DNA of 57,980 nucleotides, counting the filler, from Dirinaria sp. TL-2023a (lineage: Eukaryota): NCBI GenBank assembly GCA_051941275.1. It is 5 parts of 5 records of this genome, joined end to end, with 100 filler letters (N's around TTAATTAATTAA, not from the genome) between each part and the next. Parts side by side here need not be neighbours in the genome. Positions count along the whole stretch, not along the records: positions 11,630 to 23,153 come from JAVEBF010000838.1; 4 more parts are not named here. One strand, written 5' to 3'. This document shows positions 11,530 to 23,253 of the stretch, one piece after another; the stretch's first letter is position 1, and every line of letters begins with the position of its first letter. The notes beneath the pieces were generated by a model. That model was not told the DNA's origin. It saw nothing but the letters and a program-made list of their open reading frames with translations, and searched no databases. The position numbers were made by a program, and so were the translations under genes.

Positions 11530-11629
11530 NNNNNNNNNNNNNNNNNNNNNNNNNNNNNNNNNNNNNNNNNNNNTTAATTAATTAANNNNNNNNNNNNNNN
11601 NNNNNNNNNNNNNNNNNNNNNNNNNNNNN
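11530..11629. other. Assembly gap (100-nt N spacer with TTAATTAATTAA six-frame-stop linker)
   Basis: N run with central TTAATTAATTAA. The same design occurs at four places in the window. Confidence 0.98.
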
Positions 11630-14059
11630 GCCCATTCAGGCAACGCAAAAGGCTGGCTTCGAAGCACAAGGGTCATCAGAGGATGTATGCGTACAGAATG
11701 ATCGTGGTCGTTTGCATTCCCCAAAGATTTGCGGAAGAACCCTTTCTCCTCACATAATTGAAAAGCCTGCTCCAGAGAGCGCAAAGTGGAGAATTTGATC
11801 GCTGGAAATTCCCGGCCTTTGGCAGCAACGTCAAATTCTCCCTCGGAGAACATTTCAAGCAATGCTTTAATCCAAGAATTTGGTAGGTTGAAAAATTTGC
11901 TGTCAAATGTGACTCGTGCTTGAGCAAGCTGAAAGAATATACGATAGTAGGCCAGGTTGGAAGGGAATAATCTCCAGAAAGGCGCGAGGAGTCTGAAGTC
12001 ATCATCATGGATAGCTGAAGCTGCAGCTCTAGAAGCCCCTACATGCAATCGGACGAGATAACGTGCATCGATCAAGCTCCGATGACCGTCTTCTTCACAA
12101 TTGTTCTCGCCGTATCCGCTCAGAACTGATCCATTAGTTAACTTGTGATAAAGCAGCTTAAATGAGTTGCAGGATGTCTTATACACTCTCATCAATAGTG
12201 AGATCGCCAATGCATTTCCATCCACAAGACTCATACACTGCTCAAGAAACCTCAAATCAAGCTTGTCACCAGTGCGAATGTCACATGACATCCTTGTCGC
12301 TTCCTGGGCAGCGAACTGTAAGCTCGCTTTCATGTCAAGATTGTTGAGAATGTAAGTGTCTTTGGCGACGGTCTGAACCCATCGCTCCTCGGATCGTGAA
12401 AGCAAAAGCACGATACTATATTTGATACCACGTAGAAAGCGGCGTAAAGCGCGTTGCGATGAGGAAGACTCCCGGCCTATCTGTATAGCTTCTAGGCTGT
12501 CTATGACGATGAGGTATTTGTGCTTATTGAGATGTTTCACAGCATCATTGGAACCTTGCGTCGAGGTCATACCAAGCGCAGCATCTATCTTCTCTCGAAT
12601 GTGGTGGACTTCCAGCCCGCCTGGCACTGCGCAATCGATTTGAACAAAGTCTTCGACGTATCCGAGAGCTTTCCACCACCAGCAGAGATGCCGAGCCAGA
12701 AAAGTCTTACCTGCCCCGGCAGAAGCTCTGATGAGGAGTGTGTTCGAGATAGCTGTTTTGCGTTCCAAGGCTAAGATATTACCCTCTCGTCCGCATATCT
12801 TCACTGGCTCTTCGCAGACAAACTCCGAGGTGGAGCCTTCATCGTCCAAGCGTAGATCGCCGATATCTATGTCTGTGCTTACAGCCACAATAGGTGTAAT
12901 ATAGTCCATCACTTGCACCTCTGAATTGAACTTGGTCCGTCGATTTGGCTGTTTTTGCAGCGCAAGTCGGCTAATGTGAGCTGCACTAATAAATCTCGCA
13001 CCATTTTTAATGTACGAGTAGTAGAAATTTCTTGCAAATACGTCGACCGCTGAGTCAAGAATTTGATATCTCATTCCAATAGCCAGAAGTAATCCTTGCT
13101 GGATCATTGTCCGTGCAGCACTTGATGATAACCCCTCTTCCGAGCCAGATTGACAAGCATTCATAACGGCATAGCGCACCCCACGTTTCGCCAGGAGCTT
13201 GGCCACATCCATTACTGGAATATCGTCCTCCCCTGTTAGATCGTCATTGGCGGGAATAAACCTCAGAAAAGCTCTATATGATGACTCAGTCTACGGCGAC
13301 GATCCTTTTGAGAGGGCAAGAACCTATGGTAACTCACTGTCCATCGCGCACAAGGCCATGCACATCTAAATGTACAACATCGAAATGGCCGAACTCGTGT
13401 TTGTCGAGGCTGCTCGATAGAGCTTTGAATGTTCCGGGATGAACAGTTTGAAGGGATGATGGGCATTGACCCGGCACGCTGTGCTCCTGGACAATGCCCA
13501 AGATCGAGCGCGTCACGAGTCTATGGGGTATATCATTCGCTTGACCCGGTCTAGCCGTGATTGCAAGGATGTTGTGCTGAGAAAAACCCCCTTCTACGCT
13601 AAAGTTAGTGCTTAGCGTGTCCTGCTCGATAGTTGGCTTCGTCCTTCGAACGACGGAAACAATGCTCGGCCGTCGTTCCTCTGGCCAGAGCTCGACATTT
13701 TCCAGAACTTCCCAATGAATTCGGGCCATCCGAGGTGTGAATCCGCCTTCATACTCGATTAAGATCAGCAAGCTTGAATCCTTGAGACCTTGAAGCGTAG
13801 CATCTGAATAAGATATCTCCAAAGCAAGTGAAATGCCATGAGATCTTAATGAGCGTTGGACACGCTGCGCTCTGGCGAAGGAGAATGGGTCTCGCGTGGC
13901 ATAGTCCTCGAGGTACCATCTGATCTCCTCCCATACATTGTCCGCAGGGTCTGGCATTGCTGGAAGAAAGATGTGGAACGCTGCATTCAAGACCGAGGTG
14001 GTCATAGAAGCTTCAAGCGAAACTTGCCCAACAATTTCACGAATGCTGAGACGTGCCAT
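11630..14059 (-). CDS. CHAT (caspase-like) protease domain + STAND/NB-ARC-like NTPase, NLR-like protein; 3' end lost in assembly gap
   Basis: Exon 1 (14059-13338) has RWYLEDYATRDPF, IHWEVLE, ILAITARP and FDVVHLDVHG (catalytic His). A 64-nt GTGAGT...TAG intron (13274-13337) splices in frame to exon 2. Exon 2 has AVMNACQSG (catalytic Cys), AIGMRYQI, GREGNI, Walker A ASAGAGKT, Walker B YLIVIDSLE, LLLSR and a GxP-like DGNALAI. Confidence 0.85.
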
Positions 14060-14829
14060 GATGCGGGATACGACTATTCGTCGATCTCAACCGTTGTCTG
14101 AGCGTTCGTCAACCCGAATTCTTACTCTGGTTGTTACCGGGAACATCGGTACAGCCATTCGACGAATGCACTCTACTCCGCACGTGTAATCTGTTGAGCT
14201 GATTGTCCTGAAGGGTCGTCCAGTTTCCTAGGTTACTACTTTGCTCATTGCAACTTTTGCTATTGACGATAGGCCCATACATATTCTTGAATATTTACCA
14301 TTCAGGTAGAGAGTTTTGTCAATATAGAGTCTATGCTGAAATCGGTTAGAAAGCCGTCGCCACCCGGCTCTCCCGAGGGTCCCCGAGAAGAACCGCGGGT
14401 ATGCGAATGAAACGGTTGATCTAGCTCGAGAGAACTAACCGAGGTAACTCCGTACACTTGGCTAGCAGGCTCGGCGATTTCTCGGCTGCATATCTCTTAC
14501 GAACGCTTGGCGTCATTCTTCGAACAACCATCACATCACCTCTACTCCGTATTATGAATCATTACTGAAGCTTCGAAGATGAACGTCAGTTGTCACCAAT
14601 CTGTGAGACTTGCTAAAAGTTTATGCTTATAACTCTCCACAAGGATCGATTTGAGCAATCGGACTGAATAAATCGCGAGGTAACGATGACGAATGTTTGC
14701 ATTTTCGTTCATCGCGCTAAAGGCGGGGGCGATGGGAGAGACGCGCAACGGCCGAGTTGTCTTCCAGAATTGGCCAGGGGAACGAGGAGATTGTCCATGG
14801 TCACATTATTGCCTTAGTCGAAAGAGACC

Positions 14830-15696
14830 ATGACGGATTCAGAACGGACTTTTTACCTCCTAGAGCCCTTCAAAACCATTCCTGTCGGTGAAGATCTCCA
14901 GGAATGGCTTGGTCGCATCGTTCCAGACTACCGACATCCGTCAGCCAACTTCAGGCCCGCGAAATCCAACACTGCCATGCGCAAGAAAGATATCCTCGAC
15001 GATCCTGGGTGGAAGGATGTGGAGGAGGTCATCAGTCGCGCCAAGACAAGCACATTAAAATTGGCCATGGCCAGCATGTTGCGTGCAAGTCACGAGAACG
15101 AACAGAGCCACGCCCCTACCTTCAGCGCTCCCAGAGTTCATCGAATCCAATTGATGCAGGAAGATGACTATCTCCAGCGCGTTCTGGGTCTGGACGAGGT
15201 GGGAAGCAAATTGAGGGATTGGCATCATCGCGATCGGCCGGTGTACATGATCGTCACCCTCCTCATCGCCGATGCAGTGAGGTACGCGGAAGAAGACAGA
15301 GATAAGAGGACTACAGAGCTGGAAGTGAAAGCACCTGCTGAGCTCGCACCTCTGGCGGCGGCATCGGGTCTACCCATTCCCGGTCCTGACAGCGTCAACG
15401 CGGCCGCATCCCTCTCCACGGAGCGACGGGTAGAAGCAAAGCTTACGGGCGTCGGCAAGAGGATCTTCGCGATCGAATACAGACCCCTGACGAAGCGTTT
15501 TTTCAGCTTTTCCGGCAAAGTGGATCTGCGCCCTGGAGGCGTCCGGGGAGACCGGATGTTCGGGCACGTCGAAGCCTCGATGACGACGCCCGAGCCGGAA
15601 GAGCAGCAGTCGGATATCATCGCTGACTATGATCCCTTACCGGATGTTGTGGACGAAGCCGAAGCTGATGAGTATTGCTTCACTTTCGACGATTGA
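14830..15696 (+). CDS. Gasdermin-like (RCD-1/HET-Q1-like) pore-forming protein, putative
   Basis: Intronless 288-aa ORF whose motif order resembles fungal gasdermins: N-terminal FYL...LGRIVPDYRHP, central PVYMIVTLLIA, late RIFAIEY. Ends in a ~45-aa acidic tail. Divergently adjacent to a CHAT protease gene. Confidence 0.72.
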   Translation: MTDSERTFYLLEPFKTIPVGEDLQEWLGRIVPDYRHPSANFRPAKSNTAMRKKDILDDPGWKDVEEVISRAKTSTLKLAMASMLRASHENEQSHAPTFSAPRVHRIQLMQEDDYLQRVLGLDEVGSKLRDWHHRDRPVYMIVTLLIADAVRYAEEDRDKRTTELEVKAPAELAPLAAASGLPIPGPDSVNAAASLSTERRVEAKLTGVGKRIFAIEYRPLTKRFFSFSGKVDLRPGGVRGDRMFGHVEASMTTPEPEEQQSDIIADYDPLPDVVDEAEADEYCFTFDD

Positions 15697-16408
15697 TCGA
15701 TCAGACGCTCGAGTGCAGGCACGTGATGCTCTTGGAGATACTGAGCCTATCACCTTTGCAAGGCCTAAAAAAAGTCGAATGTTGGTTGGAGTACTTAAAG
15801 GGTGCAGAAAATTTGTTGATATGACGACCTGGACAGTGGGAATGCGAAGACGACGTGGCCTTTTAATTGCACAAAATAATGCCGCGAATGGATGATGGTA
15901 TGATACCCTGGTTTGGCTACTTACCTTGCCATTCCTACTTTAACCGTTTCGGGAAAGCTCTCGCACAGCGTTTAGCGAGATAGGTAAATGTGTTGATCGA
16001 GGCTTCATAATACGGCTTTTGGTTCTAATAAAAGATCCTGGTGCACTTGGTGGGTGTTATCATACATTCAAGTACCTTGTGTACATTGTGCTAAGTTATG
16101 CTTGTGGAGCGGACTCTTGTGTGTTTGGGTTAGAGCAGAGTGATGGCCATGATTCCATGAGAGAACCTTGAAGGGGTGGAAAAAAAAGAGAGAAAATAAA
16201 AGAAAAGCAGGGTGTGCCTAGGCATGCTGAGTATCTTTATAATTGATTATAGGTAAGCATGCCCATGTTCTCGACTGTCAGACATACCCTCGTGAAGCAA
16301 TGCGATCTTCCCATATGTGATAAAATCTACACTAATGACGCAGCCACAAGCCAAGCAAGAGCTGTGAGCTTAATGTCACTAAAATACCTTGGAGCAGTTG
16401 GGAGGGGT

Positions 16409-18214
16409 TCAAAGCTTCGCGCTCATCTCCTTCTTCGCCCACTCTCTCAGCACCCGTTTCAAGATCTTCCCACTCGCGTTCCTTGGGATCGCATCTACAA
16501 ATCGGACGCCTCCCTCCAAGTGCTTGATCTTCGTCAATTTTCCCGCCAGATACCGCTTCACTTCTTCTTCCATCAAATGATCGCCCTCCCTCCCAGCTCT
16601 CTTGACTACATAAGCCCGAGGCAGCTGACCGCCATCCTCTCTCGCTTGACCATCCGGGATGCCAATCACAGCCGCATCCACGATCTGAGGGTGGCCGAGT
16701 AAGACAGCTTCGAGCTCTGGCGGCGCGACTTGGAATGCCCGCACTTTGATCAGCTCTTTTTTGCGGTCGACAATATACCACAGCTTCGTCTGCCCGTCAC
16801 AGTAGGCGATGTCCCCGGTGTGGTAGAAGCCGTCGGAGTCGAAGGCTTGATCGGCGGCAGGGTTGTTATAGTAGCCTGATACAATTATAGGTCCTCGGAC
16901 ACACAACTCGCCCTGGGTGTCGTAGGCTGTGATGTCGTTGCCGTCCCCGTCGACGAGTCTGCAGAGAAGGTCAATGTTGAAGGAGGTTTGGAAGACTTGA
17001 GAAGTTGACTTACTTAGTGTCCATGTTCGGCAGTGGCCGTCCAACACTGCCAGTGAAATCGCGCTGGGGCCAAGGAATATTCATGGCGACGCAGGTGGTT
17101 TCGGTCATGCCTGCTCCTTTTTAGCGATTTGCCTCTGTCGACTAGATTGTAAACTCCTCACCCCAGACTTGAGTGCAAGGGGCACCATCAGCTAATAAAT
17201 CCTGCAACCTCTTCTGCGGTCCTTTGCCCAGAGGCGCCGCACCGCAGGAGGCCTGTCTCACACTTTTCAGGCTATAATTCTCCGTCAAGTCCGACATGAC
17301 GATTGCGAGTATCATTGGAGGAACGGTGCCCATGTCCGTGATCTGATACTTTTCGATGTTGGCAAGGTAACCTTCGAGTTCGAATCTGCGCATTACGTAT
17401 GAAAGCTGGCCGTCCTTGAGACTCGTCGTATGAGCGACGGGGAACACAGCAGCGTGGAACATGGGTAAGCAATTCAGTCGTTTGATTCGATACTCTTTTG
17501 CGCGAACATCAGGATCATAGATCAAGTGGTGCTCGGCTACGAGGTTGTAGTGGCTCGTCATGGTCGCTTTAGGCAAACCCGTAGTGCCGCTGCTGAATAG
17601 CCTCACCGCTTCCGTGGCTTTGGCAGTCTGCAAGTCATCGAAACGCACCCAGTCCTCCTCGCCACAGTCGAGCAGTGTTTCGTAAGTACTGAACCCTTCA
17701 GGGATTGCTTGCCCTTGAACATCAAATATTAGGATCCTCGAATTCGGTATATTGCATTCCTTGGCCGCTTCCAAAATCGGCTGCAGCATTTCGGGTTCAG
17801 TAATCAGGTACTTGACGTCTGCAGTCTTGATATGGTGGACCAGCTCGTAAGGCGTGTAGCTCGGGTTGGTCGCTGCAAAGATACCTCCTGCACCGACCAC
17901 GCCGAGAAAGAGGACGGAATACATGATGTCGTTGAAGGAGTGCAGACAGACCACATTCTTCTTCCCAGCACGCACACCCCATTTTCTGAAGCCGGCGACG
18001 AGTTTTCTGACGATATTTTTCGCCTGGTTGTTGCTGATGGAGCGTTCCGGCCTCGCTGTGTCAATGATTATCTGAATAATCGATTGAGCGGATGCGAAAA
18101 CAGTCACGCCATGACACTTACTGGTTCATCTCTATCGTATGGAACATTGTCAAAGGTCCATGATAGGATGTCCTTGGTCGGGATTGGGATATGCTGCTCG
18201 GCCAAGAACACCAT
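16409..18214 (-). CDS. Peroxisomal 4-coumarate/phenylacetate-CoA ligase-like AMP-binding enzyme (4 exons)
   Basis: FSSGTTGLPK, LPMFHA, CGAAPL, QVWGMTET, GELCVRGP, FYHTGD, IVDRKKELIK and IPRNASGKILKR. C-terminal AKL is a PTS1 signal. ATG at 18214 (MVFLAE). Confidence 0.93.
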
Positions 18215-20505
18215 GACTACGAGTCGTGGTGGGAATTGGAAAGAACAAGGTCGGGTATTCACTGAGCGTAATTGAATAGCGGGAAAACTTTAACATTGCC
18301 TATGGCAAAACTAGGTACTTAATCCCCCTTGGGGGTTTTTATTCGAGAGCAGCAGCTTTCGGAGTTCATGAGATGGGCATTTCCGTCTGATATTGGGGTA
18401 CCTACCTAGCCCGTTCGTCATTGGATGATTGCCGACATGACCCCGCTACAAGGTCAGTAGTACGGGAATGACGTCTGAAGGTCAGGTACTCCGTAACGGT
18501 AACGGAATTAAGGTACTTCTACATCACATCTGTTACAGAAAAGCCAGCAATCGATTCGAAGCAGTGAATAGGAGCTGTATTGACAGCCTATCATTGTTTT
18601 GGCGAGCCTCATTGAGGTTTGCATCATCGAACAGCAAGCCAGCAGCAAGTGACGTACTGTAAGATCCGCCCTTACCTACCTTAACGCCGAAGACCTGTGG
18701 TGTCTTATCAGTGGTTGCCTCGGCTCACGTATGCACCTTTTGGGTTCAGGGGAATGCGCCTTGCAAAGGTTCTGTACTCCTATACTGTGAACCAGCTTGT
18801 AGTGTTTGTGCGCTTCGAAAGGGATGAGTTGTCCTCATGCTCTACAGCGCATCAATATTGTCGCCAGTAAAACAAGGTTCACGTAAAATGAGAGCCGAGC
18901 TGACTTGGGCTGACGTGCAGGAAACCTTCCACGGCGCCGGCCAGAGCACTAACGGGGCTGCGGGACAGGTCCCGTCCGAGGTGCCGAGGGTGTAGGTTCG
19001 GCCGGCCCCGAGCCTCGAACCCTGAGCCATGGCTCGTGCCCTAGCCAAGCAATCTCTACTAGGCTCGAGGCGCGCTACTCTAATCTCAACGACGTCGCAT
19101 CGTATGCCATATGATGATCACGCTTTCTCATAAATCTTTGAATGACTGAATCCACTTGTGAAGATCTCAATTCAGGATTGATTATGACTGATGGTTGCAC
19201 AGCTTTTAAAGCATATGTCGCCAGTCCTTGGCCCTCGCCAAGGAAAGTGCAGTCGACATTGTGGGATGCATTACAAGGCCAGCCAGTATGACAGCTGCTC
19301 GATCATTCTTTTACAGCCCCACTTACTTCTGTGCCAATGATAATAATAGGGAGAGTGTACATTCGAAGTAGTATCAGCATGGCTTTCACTCATTAGGGAG
19401 TTCTGCTTTATCGATATAGCAAGCGTATTGCGCTCCCTAGCAAGAATAGGTGATTGTGTCTTCTAGCCTGCCTATCAGTAGCTTGGACTTACTTTCTTTG
19501 ATCATTTGGATACTTTTTATTGTGGTATTAATCAACTTTAATGATTATGTTTATTTGACCATGGCTCGTGAATGATGGGCCAACCCGTCGAGATCCCAGT
19601 CATACGTTTCTGTCATGAGTCATCTATATGCGTGGACAAGCACCTTGTCAGAGCATGGGGAAATCATCCATGGCCTGAAAAGTGTCAGATCCTGCTGCAA
19701 ATAGAAAAGAGTTGCAAACCTGTTGTAGACAGCGAAGGCTGAATATCTTGGGCCCACCAAAAGTCGCAGCAGTGAATTATTCATTGAGAAAAGTGAATTC
19801 GATACAGGGCAAATTATCAGATATCAGAGCCACCAATATCCAATACACCTCAGAAGGACTTGTCTTGACTGGCTGAGGCAATGTATCGACAATGTCACAG
19901 CGAAGGCGCCACCATCAAGGATCGATTGCTACTGTGCTATCATTACGGGATATTCGCGATCATCACACCCGTGATAGACACTCCGGCTGTTGCCTAAGAT
20001 TACTCTTCTCTCACTATGAAACTCGCTCGCTAAGGTGTTGATCGTGCGGTAAGCTGGATCCTGATTGGAAGCAGATCACAAAGGCTTTGTCTGTGTCCCC
20101 TTATCACCATCAAAGTGAGTTGTTGCCATTGTGTTGTTATTTCCACCGGACAAAAGCGGGTCCCAACTAAGCGAAGATCAAAACAAAGGGCTTTGTCTGT
20201 TCTCTGCCGCCCATCAACATCGGCTGACACTATTGTGTGTTGACAAACCAAGAAAAGTGGGTCCAGGCGCGAAGAACAATGGCAAAGTGATCACATTGCC
20301 TCTGCTAAGCGAGATTGCCCTTTTCCCGCCACCCACAAAGGCTTTCCCTCCTCTCACTTTCTCTTCCTTCTCCTGCACCTTCTGCTTCCTCCCCATCTTC
20401 AGCTTTTTGAATCGTGCTTCGTACCCAAAGAACGCTCGATTTCGCTGGCTGCTACAGAAAACACTGCTTGTGTTCGTCAGAAGCTTTGCTTTTGAAAAGC
20501 TTCAT

Positions 20506-21200
20506 TTCAACCCCGCTCCACCTGTGCTTCAAAGGTCTCGCTTTTGAGGCGCGTCAACTCACCACCGCTCTGCGTGTGACTTAAAGGACTTTCTTTCGGA
20601 GAGACAACCTACCTCTGCTCAGTGCGTTTCTCCCAAAGCTTGCTTTTGGTGAGAGTCAACTACCTCCGCTCTGCGCGTTCCCCAGAAGGTCTCCTTCGGA
20701 GAGCGTCAACTTACCATTGCTCCGCGTGTCCCAACAAAGATTTGCTTCGGAGAGAGTCAACTTACCCTTGCTCCGTGTGGACCTAAGAGCCTTGCTTTCG
20801 GAGAGAGTCAACCTACCTCTGCTTCGCGCGTTCGACCAAGGCTTTCTCTCGAAGAGAGTCAACTTACCTCTGCTCTGCGCGTTCGACCAAGGCTTTCTTT
20901 AGGAGAGTCAACTTACCTCGCTCTGCGTGTTGGACCAAGGACTTTCTTTCGGAGAGTCAACCTACCTCAGCTCTGCGTGTACCACAAAGAACTTGCTTTC
21001 GAAAAGCGTCGACAATCTATCTCCGCTCCGTGTGTTTCACCAAAAGCAAGCTTTTGGTGAGAGTCAACTATCTCTGCTCTGCGTGGTGTTCACAAGGTCT
21101 CCTTCGAAGAGCGTCAACTTACCATTGCTCGGCGTGTTTCACTAAGGCTTTCTTTTGAAAAGTCAACCTATCGCTGCTCCGCGTCGATTTCCTCCGGCTT
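20506..21200. repeat. Degenerate tandem repeat array, 13-14 units of ~49-55 bp
   Basis: GTCAAC-like anchors at 20553, 20603, 20655, 20705, 20756, 20807, 20858, 20907, 20956, 21008, 21063, 21113 and 21162, plus a weak one at 20506. Approximate consensus GTCAACTTACCTCTGCTCTGCGTGTT..CCAAGGCTTTCTTTCGGAGAGA. Confidence 0.95.
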
Positions 21201-21361
21201 CTCTCTTAGGCACCACCGACATTTGGTTTCGACCTTAGAGCTAGACGACTTATCATATTGCTCTCGCCGTCAGAGGAAGACCATCTCGTGTTCATAAAGC
21301 CTCGGCATATTCCTAGTCCTCTTTCAAGCATCACGACTCCCGGAACTCTGCTTCGTGGAAA

Positions 21362-23153
21362 ATGGCGCCACCCTTTACGAGCTTGCTTTATGTGGTAGTT
21401 TCAAGTCTGCTGCAGAACTACATCGACTTGAACACTATGTATCACCACTGCTGGGGAGAGGTAAGTCTACAGAGCATCATTTGACGCGTATCATTCACGA
21501 AGGGAAATGCTAATTCTTCCGTGTCATTATAGCTCCCAACTCCATGCCGCCCTGACCTCCGATTCTACAACGCGAAAGGTGCCGCGCGCAAGGCGGCAGC
21601 CGTTTCAAGATACGAGTATGGCTACCTCACGCTGCCTGCTCCAACGGCTCCGCCGAGGATGGAAATCACCGTAGCTCCGAATCTGGTCCCGGTTTCCCAC
21701 AAAGGCACCGCTGCTTTCGGTAAGTGATATATCTTCGTTCTCGATTTTGCCAAAGCTAATGTTCTGTAGATTTCGCCCCTGCTTTGTCCCCCGCTTCGGT
21801 CTTCGGCTCTGTAAATCACTTTATCACGACGCTCATCGCGATCTTGTGCTTTGTAGCTCTGTACGCCGTCTACAGCACTGTCCTCGTGCCTCTTATCGAG
21901 GACAAAATGGGCCGCTTGACCCTCAATGTTCACCAAGCGGACCCGTTTAAGACCATGGCCGTGTCAGTAATGAGTGTCAAGACCACACTGGAGCGCCGAA
22001 TCAGACAATTGCACAAGCAGATCGACCGTTTGACAAACAAAGGGACCCAAGCGAATCGGTTCAAGGAGCTTGCAGTGGCGCTGATGGTCGAGAAAGTCTC
22101 GCTGCAGAACAAGGTCGCAGAACTCTCGCAGGAAATCATCCGGCTCACCATTCCACGGGACAAGTTCAAAGGTCTTTGCATATCGTTAATGCGGGAAAAA
22201 GTTTTCCTGCAAGATCGAGTAACATACCTCGAAGAGCAGCTCGACAAGCTGCGTCGAGAGAAGACCCCGGCTGCCGGTGCCCCATCGACCCAAGCGGGCC
22301 CATTCAACGTGCCGTCCGCCTCCTTCGGTTTTGCCGCGCCCGCTTTCACGCCGCTGCCCTCGCTGCACAACGTGTTTCCAAGCATCCTGACAAACCCCAG
22401 CCCGATCTTTGGTCCTCCCATGACCGAAGAGGAAGCAGCAGCAGCACGGGCACGGATACAATCAAGGGTGATCCTGCCAGCACGATCCATCTTCCCAATG
22501 CTGGAACAGAAGGACGACGACAAGGAAACGCCGGCAAAAGCGGAAGAAGACTCTGCCCAAGACAAAGCTCCAGAGCCAGCAATCACCGAGCCAGCAGCAC
22601 CCGAGATAACAGTAACCGAGCCAGCAGCCGCCGATAACGCCGAACGCCCAAAGACCCGCGCCGAGCGGGGACTCTGCAAGAACAAGTCCCCCAGCCAACG
22701 GAGAGCGGCCAAGAAGGCCAAAGAAGCGGCGGCGGCTGCGGCGGAGGCAGAGGCGGCAGCAAAAGAAGCCGCGGACGAAGAAGAAGCCCAAAAGAAGGGC
22801 AATGAAGAAGAAGAAGGGCCCAAAGAGCCCGAGAAGAAGGATGGTGCGTCTCCGTCTCAGACGGATGACCCTGTCAAGGCCAATGAAGGCCAAGAAGAAG
22901 AAGAAGAGAAGAAGGAGGAGGATAACGCCGCAGAAGCCAGCACTACTGGCGGGCAAGAAGAGCCGGCTGCGGTGGAGGAGGGAGGAGAGCAGGAGAAGCC
23001 GAAGGCGAAGAAGAAGCCGAGGCGGCAGAAGAGGAAGAACCAGAGGATCAGAGAGGCCGCCGAGCGAGAAGCTGCTGCTGCTGCTGCTGCTGCCGAGGCT
23101 GCGAAGGAGGCTGCGAAGGAGGCGGAGGAGGCGGAGGAGGCGGAGGAGGCGGA
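21362..23153 (+). CDS. Orphan protein with a TM helix, duplicated coiled-coil and long E/K/A-rich disordered tail (3 exons; 3' end lost in gap)
   Basis: ATG at 21362. GTAAGT...AG introns 21461-21532 and 21720-21769 (both with a GCTAAT branch point) join in frame with ORF 21784. TM segment FITTLIAILCFVALYAVYSTVLVPLI. Confidence 0.75.
23071..23153 (+). repeat. Coding microsatellites: (GCT)7 and GGAGGCGGA 9-mers at the contig end
   Basis: Encode poly-Ala and AEE repeats that run into the gap. Confidence 0.85.
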
Positions 23154-23253
23154 NNNNNNNNNNNNNNNNNNNNNNNNNNNNNNNNNNNNNNNNNNNNTTA
23201 ATTAATTAANNNNNNNNNNNNNNNNNNNNNNNNNNNNNNNNNNNNNNNNNNNN
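23154..23253. other. Assembly gap (N spacer with TTAATTAATTAA)
   Basis: N run with linker. Truncates the two converging genes. Confidence 0.98.

Follow-up and report, generated by a model that had tools for sequence, protein, structure and literature searches.

This analysis concerns two divergent genes in DNA of Dirinaria sp. TL-2023a, a lichen-type ascomycete. One encodes a protein that we identify as a fungal gasdermin, and the other a predicted CHAT protease fused to a STAND-type NTPase. The window, by which we mean the whole stretch of DNA analyzed, is 57,980 bases long and consists of five stretches of approximately 11.5 kb with four 100-base linkers (44 N, TTAATTAATTAA, 44 N) between them. 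Because the window is made of joined contigs, features on separate stretches are without physical linkage. Both genes lie wholly on the second stretch, which is a single contig of 11,524 bp (11630-23153). The artificial joint preceding it (11530-11629) is non-biological and marks the cut end of the protease gene; further linkers are present at 23154-23253, around 34816 and around 46425.

The gasdermin gene is located at 14830-15696 on the plus strand and is read as a single open reading frame (ORF) of 288 codons and a stop. The protease gene occupies the minus strand, with exon 1 at 13338-14059 and exon 2 at 11630-13273. By their ORF positions, the genes start on either side of a 770-bp spacer (14060-14829) and diverge from it. 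RNA contigs enter this spacer from both sides, reaching 14253 from the protease gene and 14622 from the gasdermin gene, and it presumably holds a shared bidirectional promoter together with both 5′ untranslated regions (UTRs). An earlier sequence-only reading of this DNA had placed the genes head-to-head on one contig at exactly this distance, and every feature that it named was found where it had put it. With 770 bp between the genes, the protease gene lies inside the 10 kb around a gasdermin gene that Clavé et al. (2022; PMC8851545) took as their criterion of neighbourhood.

The gasdermin and its C-terminal tail

Standard family models did not recognize the 288-residue protein. No Pfam match was obtained for it or for any of 103 members of its family, PADLOC gave no match for the gasdermin protein, and none of ten gasdermin-family clusters carried an informative name. 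Searches of the PDB sequences by phmmer with the single protein and with a 10-sequence profile returned chance matches only (E > 0.3).

A profile search of 1.84 billion representative sequences, on the other hand, identified 470 relatives at E ≤ 0.001, mostly of 260-320 residues. When a profile of 103 members was compared with the PDB, the best match was RCD-1-1 (8jyz_A, E 4.5e-9), followed by the HET-Q1 pore (9uv9_A, E 6.1e-5) and RCD-1-2 (E 0.016). An AlphaFold model built on the 103-member alignment (pLDDT 81.8, pTM 0.74) contains long beta hairpins and a low-confidence tail. In a Foldseek search with this model all of the first eleven ranks were taken by gasdermins: the RCD-1 pore came first (E 6e-10), and Trichoplax, bacterial and the GSDMD, GSDME, GSDMB and GSDMA3 structures came after it. 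The nearest clusters in the protein Atlas were unnamed ascomycete ones (0.97-0.98), and 10 of 30 matches were to Bact_GSDM at 0.96. Since the 103-member profile, the AlphaFold model, Foldseek and the Atlas agree, both the fold and the family are well supported, and we assign the protein to the HET-Q1/RCD-1 branch of fungal gasdermins. The sequence-only reading had spoken of gasdermin-like motifs and had proposed a structural comparison of 14830-15696. That comparison gave a gasdermin fold with the RCD-1 pore as the top match; the motifs were thus borne out by profile and fold, while Pfam and PADLOC remained silent.

The C-terminal part of the protein is acidic, as had been noticed from the sequence: the 44 residues after Phe244 include 15 Asp or Glu and no Lys or Arg. 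Across the 103 relatives the best-kept columns of the C-terminal region are those of residue 244 (F75/Y14/L5) and residue 245 (G68/A14/S11). Downstream of Gly245 there are an acidic run, a conserved LDxD element (265-268) and a hydrophobic CFxF element (283-286). In the available text on HET-Q1, that gasdermin is cut after F238 and before A239-G240, with the loss of about 40 residues, and a CHAT protease of Runella is described as cutting its gasdermin at Leu247|Gly (Johnson et al., bioRxiv 10.1101/2021.06.07.447441). On the basis of the conserved Phe-Gly pair and of these two known sites, we predict that the Dirinaria gasdermin would be cut at F244|G245 (15559-15564, plus strand). The putative inhibitory peptide released by such a cut would be the 44 residues encoded at 15562-15693, a suggestion that draws on its composition and on the conserved LDxD and CFxF elements.

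The CHAT protease-NTPase gene

Exon 1 of the minus-strand gene encodes an N-terminal region followed by the first half of the CHAT domain, as judged from the ORF, from alignment and from an RNA contig covering 13610-14253. Exon 2, which is recognized from the ORF, from Pfam, by alignment and by partial RNA cover, encodes the C-terminal half of CHAT, a STAND/NACHT-like NTPase and a helical middle region. Between the exons there is a 64-nt phase 2 intron (13274-13337, GTGAGT...TATAG), which was predicted and is also seen as a joint in RNA. It separates the half of the CHAT domain with the predicted catalytic His from the half with the predicted catalytic Cys. In the spliced product the motif HLDVHG occupies residues 230-235 and NACQSG residues 279-284; alignment puts the codon of His234 at 13358-13360 and that of Cys281 at 13153-13155. 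The Walker A motif ASAGAGKT (residues 424-431, 12703-12726) and the Walker B motif LIVIDSLE (residues 495-502, 12490-12513) follow the protease in the same reading frame. The frame of this product stays open through 788 codons and has no stop where the contig ends; that the gene is incomplete is not mentioned in the sequence-only reading. An alternative splice, with the donor after HGL and with TESSYR coding, was also considered; it was set aside in view of the RNA contig that has the 64-nt GT..AG joint.

Pfam recognizes CHAT (PF12770) on exon 2 with 27.1 bits against a cut-off of 24 (E 3.5e-6, profile positions 179-274). Exon 1 alone has no Pfam match, and it aligns with the N-terminal CHAT half of four relatives (P0014-P0017) that were found in a search among longer proteins. 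These relatives are 1,161-1,308 residues long and 25-28% identical to the Dirinaria protein, and the alignment with them spans the whole spliced product. The His of the VHG motif, the Cys of NACQS and both Walker motifs fall in conserved columns. Two of the four were scanned with Pfam and both are CHAT + NACHT + TPR proteins. The GAGKT and LIVIDS segments align with the NACHT segments of all four.

A search among proteins of similar length gave 17 non-self homologues, among them eight with an identity of 67-75%, seven with 38-45% and one with 32%. Cys281 is conserved in all nine aligned sequences that cover the column, and GAGKT and LIVIDS are likewise conserved in the orthologues. Relatives at 44% identity exceed the Pfam cut-off for NACHT (33.2 and 37.6 bits), and one of them exceeds that for NB-ARC (24.8 against 23.5). 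Overall, the data support the prediction that the gene encodes a caspase-clan CHAT protease, with His234 and Cys281 as its dyad, fused in frame to a NACHT-like STAND NTPase. The sequence-only reading had named both the intact dyad and the fused NTPase, and alignment with annotated relatives agrees with it on each count. The Pfam check that it had proposed divided: CHAT scored above its cut-off, and the NTPase of the window sequence itself stayed below those for NACHT and nSTAND3.

Two observations on the homologues should be mentioned here. In the orthologue P0168 the Walker A motif reads GTDKT where the others have GTGKT, for which a P-loop variant or a sequencing error is possible. The four longer relatives look bacterial in composition, being rich in Ala and Arg and carrying long TPR_12 arrays. 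This look of the nearest full-length CHAT-NACHT-TPR proteins may only reflect poor calls of intron-bearing fungal genes in the collection.

The orthologues extend in the same frame for approximately 380 residues beyond the point at which the window's contig ends, so the full protein is expected to have about 1,170 residues. A Pfam scan of this C-terminal part of the orthologues detected no repeat family (TPR, ANK, WD40 or LRR), and a profile of it gave chance matches only against the PDB sequences. A weak lead comes from the protein Atlas, where TPR clusters are found close to the same part, at 0.90-0.91 and with 145-162 features shared. Comparison by hhalign with the TPR region of the bacterial-type relatives aligned a single 43-residue unit only (E 0.073). 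Mean identity within the close group is 65-68% for the C-terminal part and 70-75% for other regions. With conservation only slightly below that of the rest of the protein, this part is not a hypervariable repeat array.

Transcription, linkage in relatives and neighbouring genes

Among public runs, near-identical sequence is confined to RNA libraries labelled as lichen metagenome, namely four runs, all of one sample and one study, in which 7-25% of the sampled words were present. Assembled contigs from these runs were compared with 11631-15696. The contigs are 95-99% alike to the window, which indicates that they come from a related strain and not from an identical one, and both genes are covered. 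One contig, from run X2, joins 13273 directly to 13338; the matching bases flanking this joint number 354 and 101, and the 64 nt skipped are GT..AG on the minus strand. As the joint skips exactly the predicted intron, the intron is confirmed and the contig derives from processed RNA. Over the gasdermin gene, RNA contigs of 1,457-1,559 nt span 14622-15696 and beyond without any joint, and the gene is therefore intronless there. Stretches lacking RNA cover, for example 14351-14486 and, in some runs, parts of exon 2, were not counted as evidence. We conclude that the gene pair is probably transcribed.

Another contig, from run X1, has a non-canonical joint from 13275 to 13327 in which 51 nt are skipped, one extra letter is present and 11 intron bases are kept; this would place an in-frame TGA after exon 1. 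The joint could be explained by mis-splicing, by a strain difference or by an assembly artefact.

In the gasdermin stretch 14622-15696 the RNA sample and the window disagree at 50-51 of 1,075 positions (about 4.7%, UTR included), and in pieces of protease exon 2 (11646-13273) at about 2-3%. For this one sample, and with UTR included in the first figure, the numbers may hint at a higher diversity in the gasdermin gene than in the protease gene. RNA depth is 10-13 on the gasdermin and 3-5 on the protease gene, values that are unsuited to ranking expression.

Whether the two genes stay together in relatives had been raised along with the sequence-only reading. We approached this through the recorded sizes of the contigs that carry each homologue: equal sizes were taken to indicate linkage, and the contigs themselves were not read. 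The approach is validated by the window's own two proteins (P0001 and P0165), both of which record 11,524. For eight of the 12 non-self homologues of the gasdermin, the contig has the same recorded size as one that carries a homologue of the protease gene (12359, 19307, 12004, 40010, 27184, 24073, 30781 and 597070). In the lichen fungus Ramalina farinacea, the one species named among the relatives of either protein, the pair is OHK93_004692 and OHK93_004694, with locus tags two apart. Equal size is strong circumstantial evidence of a shared contig, and the data support a pairing beyond chance and a gene pair conserved in relatives. A scan of metagenomes for related loci yielded one contig of 1,567 bp, which is too short to show neighbours.

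Other features of the contig lie to the right of the pair. The gasdermin gene is convergent with a minus-strand gene at 16409-18125 for an AMP-binding enzyme of the acyl-CoA synthetase type; this gene is split in two ORFs, presumably by an intron, and nothing evident connects it with the cell-death pair. At 20553-21184 a 51-bp unit is repeated in tandem in about 12 imperfect copies, with 69-72% matches. Several frames are open across this repeat, which is probably a minisatellite that does not code for protein. A long plus-strand ORF at 21760-23153 reaches the contig end; its product is rich in Ala, Glu and Lys, of low complexity and coiled-coil character, and belongs to no Pfam family. The remaining stretches of the window contain ordinary fungal genes, including those for a JmjC/PHD protein, a class I tRNA synthetase, Uso1/p115, an Xrn1-type protein and a major facilitator superfamily (MFS) transporter.

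A proposed cell-death module and its known counterparts

We consider it likely that the pair is a two-gene module for regulated cell death, of the fungal gasdermin and HET-Q2-like class. The protease gene would encode a single-chain receptor-protease in which an N-terminal CHAT domain is followed by a NACHT-like STAND NTPase and then by a C-terminal domain (about 380 residues, seen only in the orthologues), and the gasdermin would be kept inactive by its 44-residue acidic tail. Some cue would act on the C-terminal domain. Nucleotide-dependent oligomerization of the NTPase would then gather and activate the CHAT domains, after which a cut by the protease would fall in the gasdermin loop, at the conserved pair Phe244-Gly245. 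The freed N-terminal domain (1-244) would oligomerize into a beta-barrel membrane pore and kill the hypha. Such a chain of sensor, caspase and gasdermin could serve in defence or in allorecognition.

Several points weigh against this reading. The linkage in relatives is circumstantial in that it rests on equal contig sizes. Four of the 12 gasdermin homologues have no matching partner, namely three fragments (P0010-P0012) and P0013, a 31% identical protein on a 4.9-kb contig; in the lists compared, a partner is likewise missing for nine of the 17 homologues of the protease gene (P0173-P0175 and P0177-P0182). The NTPase of the window sequence scores below the Pfam cut-offs, with 23.6 against 27.2 for nSTAND3 and 16 against 26.7 for NACHT. 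The sensor end lies outside the window, and in the orthologues this part carries no recognized repeats. The predicted form of the gasdermin is extended and pore-like with a low-confidence tail, and is not an autoinhibited state. Since the gasdermin gene is intronless, its RNA cover is indistinguishable from carried-over DNA, and all of the RNA comes as assembled contigs from a single sample of a single study. In addition, the best match by both profile and structure, RCD-1, acts without cleavage.

The last point leads to an explanation that we regard as improbable, in which the gasdermin is RCD-1-like and is activated without cleavage by an incompatible allelic partner, and the protease-NLR (nucleotide-binding leucine-rich repeat-like receptor) has other substrates. 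RCD-1 chains are the best matches in profile and fold, RCD-1 is described as cleavage-independent in the available text of PMC13475620, and the greater divergence of the gasdermin stretch in the RNA sample could hint at allelic diversity. However, the acidic 44-residue tail follows a Phe-Gly pair that is conserved in the family, as in the cleaved HET-Q1, and the linkage to a protease gene is conserved as well. The fold ranking itself says little, because the HET-Q1 pore chain is absent from both lists of fold matches, perhaps as the library ends at the April 2026 releases.

It is also improbable, in our judgement, that the two genes are neighbours without being enzyme and substrate, with some other protease cutting the gasdermin and the CHAT-NLR processing itself or other targets. 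In the passages of Clavé et al. (PMC8851545) at hand, gasdermin clades sometimes re-associate with another type of protease and 20% of gasdermin genes have no protease neighbour. For the Dirinaria pair cleavage, toxicity and pore are all predicted, which counts for this alternative and is a further point against the proposed module. On the other side, the genes are divergent across a 770-bp spacer and are kept together in eight relatives. In both of the Podospora pairs examined by experiment in the same passages the cognate protease did cleave its gasdermin (HET-Q2/HET-Q1 and Q2L-6/Q1-6), and the non-cognate HET-Q2 left Q1-6 and Q1-5 uncleaved (PMC8851545). That the module is decaying or inactive, with a truncated protease gene or a pseudogene, is most improbable: the gene does reach the contig edge without a stop and one RNA contig has the non-canonical joint with its in-frame TGA, but the 788 codons are open up to an assembly break and not to a mutation, the same frame goes on in the orthologues, all catalytic and P-loop residues are in place and RNA shows the canonical splice.

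The reading as a cell-death module agrees with what has been described for fungi. Clavé et al. (2022; PMC8851545) reported, in the passages available, that 63% of 1,884 fungal gasdermin genes are within 10 kb of S8 protease genes, and that 19% (353 of 1,884) adjoin CHAT-type het-Q2-like genes, some products of which are NLRs. For Podospora they demonstrated processing of the gasdermin Q1-6 by the TPR-CHAT protein Q2L-6, which causes a barrage. In the legend to their Fig. 6 a CHAT-bearing NLR-like protein is hypothesised to cleave gasdermin, and Dataset S2 lists Fusarium proteins, encoded beside gasdermin genes, that are annotated with CHAT and then P-loop_NTPase, have 677-681 residues in the C-terminal part and lack repeats. 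In the portions available, a 2023 review names such pairs "contracted pyroptotic-like pathways" and a 2022 survey of NLRs cites the same gasdermin/CHAT finding. From these passages and the Dataset S2 rows it follows that the kind, including the CHAT + P-loop NTPase architecture, was already known, and the sensor-caspase-gasdermin model is published and not new. The remark in the sequence-only reading that little experimental work on CHAT-type fungal pairs was known to it was overstated, given that cleavage had been demonstrated in Podospora for one CHAT pair.

The present view of fungal cell death is left as it was. The Dirinaria pair is a clean and probably transcribed example, from a lichen-type ascomycete, of the known clusters of gasdermin and CHAT-protease genes. 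Its additions are modest: a clade of lichen fungi, RNA evidence and an unannotated C-terminal domain. A search of full-text literature found no paper on gasdermins in lichen-forming fungi, and the rows of Dataset S3 (PMC8851545) at hand count zero gasdermins in the two Lecanoromycetes genomes found there, both of Lasallia. As far as the sources consulted extend, the class has one bench-tested CHAT member, which is itself not an NLR, and no bench-tested CHAT-NACHT member. A CHAT-NACHT protein of about 1,170 residues and a substrate of 288 residues would make a tractable two-protein system for studying how NLR oligomerization switches a fused caspase-like protease.

More speculatively, and we think this rather unlikely, the pair could represent a branch of the CHAT-NLR/gasdermin system that is specific to lichen-forming fungi. 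In this branch a conserved, non-repeat sensor of about 380 residues would take the place of a variable TPR, ANK or WD array. The system, transcribed in intact thalli, would monitor some cue of thallus life (for instance a partner, parasite or virus) and would not serve conspecific allorecognition, forming a compact single-chain "inflammasome". If this were true, oligomerization-driven activation of a caspase-like protease could be reconstituted with two proteins only.

The closest tested counterpart of the proposed module is Q2L-6/Q1-6 of Podospora anserina, where a gasdermin gene likewise adjoins a CHAT-protease gene and where processing and barrage were reported. Q2L-6 is TPR-CHAT, whereas the order in Dirinaria, known here from sequence, is CHAT, NACHT-like NTPase and an unannotated C-terminal domain. 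In this respect the Fusarium proteins listed in the Dataset S2 rows are more alike, with a short N-terminus, CHAT and then some 680 residues for which P-loop_NTPase is the sole annotation, and with genes that adjoin those of gasdermins. Compared by eye and unaligned, they also share WW(K) after Walker A and HKxLIVID at Walker B. They differ in coming from another fungal class and in having, in the first rows, the Cys motif APC instead of NAC.

HET-Q1 of Podospora anserina, as described in the available text, is similar to the Dirinaria gasdermin in its size of about 280 residues. It is activated when about 40 C-terminal residues are removed by a cut between an aromatic and a small residue, as is predicted for the Dirinaria protein. 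HET-Q2, in contrast, is a subtilisin-like S8 protease without an NLR part, and the het-Q1 and het-Q2 genes represent idiomorphic alleles and not neighbours. The bacterial gasdermin of Runella with its Roc-COR-CHAT protein, and other bacterial operons, resemble the Dirinaria pair in that a CHAT protease with NTPase or repeat modules adjoins a gasdermin with a short inhibitory peptide, a putative one in Dirinaria; the Runella cut, as reported in the accessible text, has a hydrophobic P1 and a Gly at P1′, like the site predicted here. RCD-1-1 and RCD-1-2 of Neurospora are the closest solved structures and sequences, but they act by heterodimerization of allelic forms without cleavage, and no protease partner is described for them in the available text of PMC13475620. 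Finally, the mammalian pathway from an NLR through caspase-1 to GSDMD has the same order of sensor, caspase-clan protease and gasdermin pore. In Dirinaria, unlike in mammals, sensor and protease would be one polypeptide, and the putative inhibitory part comprises 44 residues where the mammalian one is a domain of more than 200.

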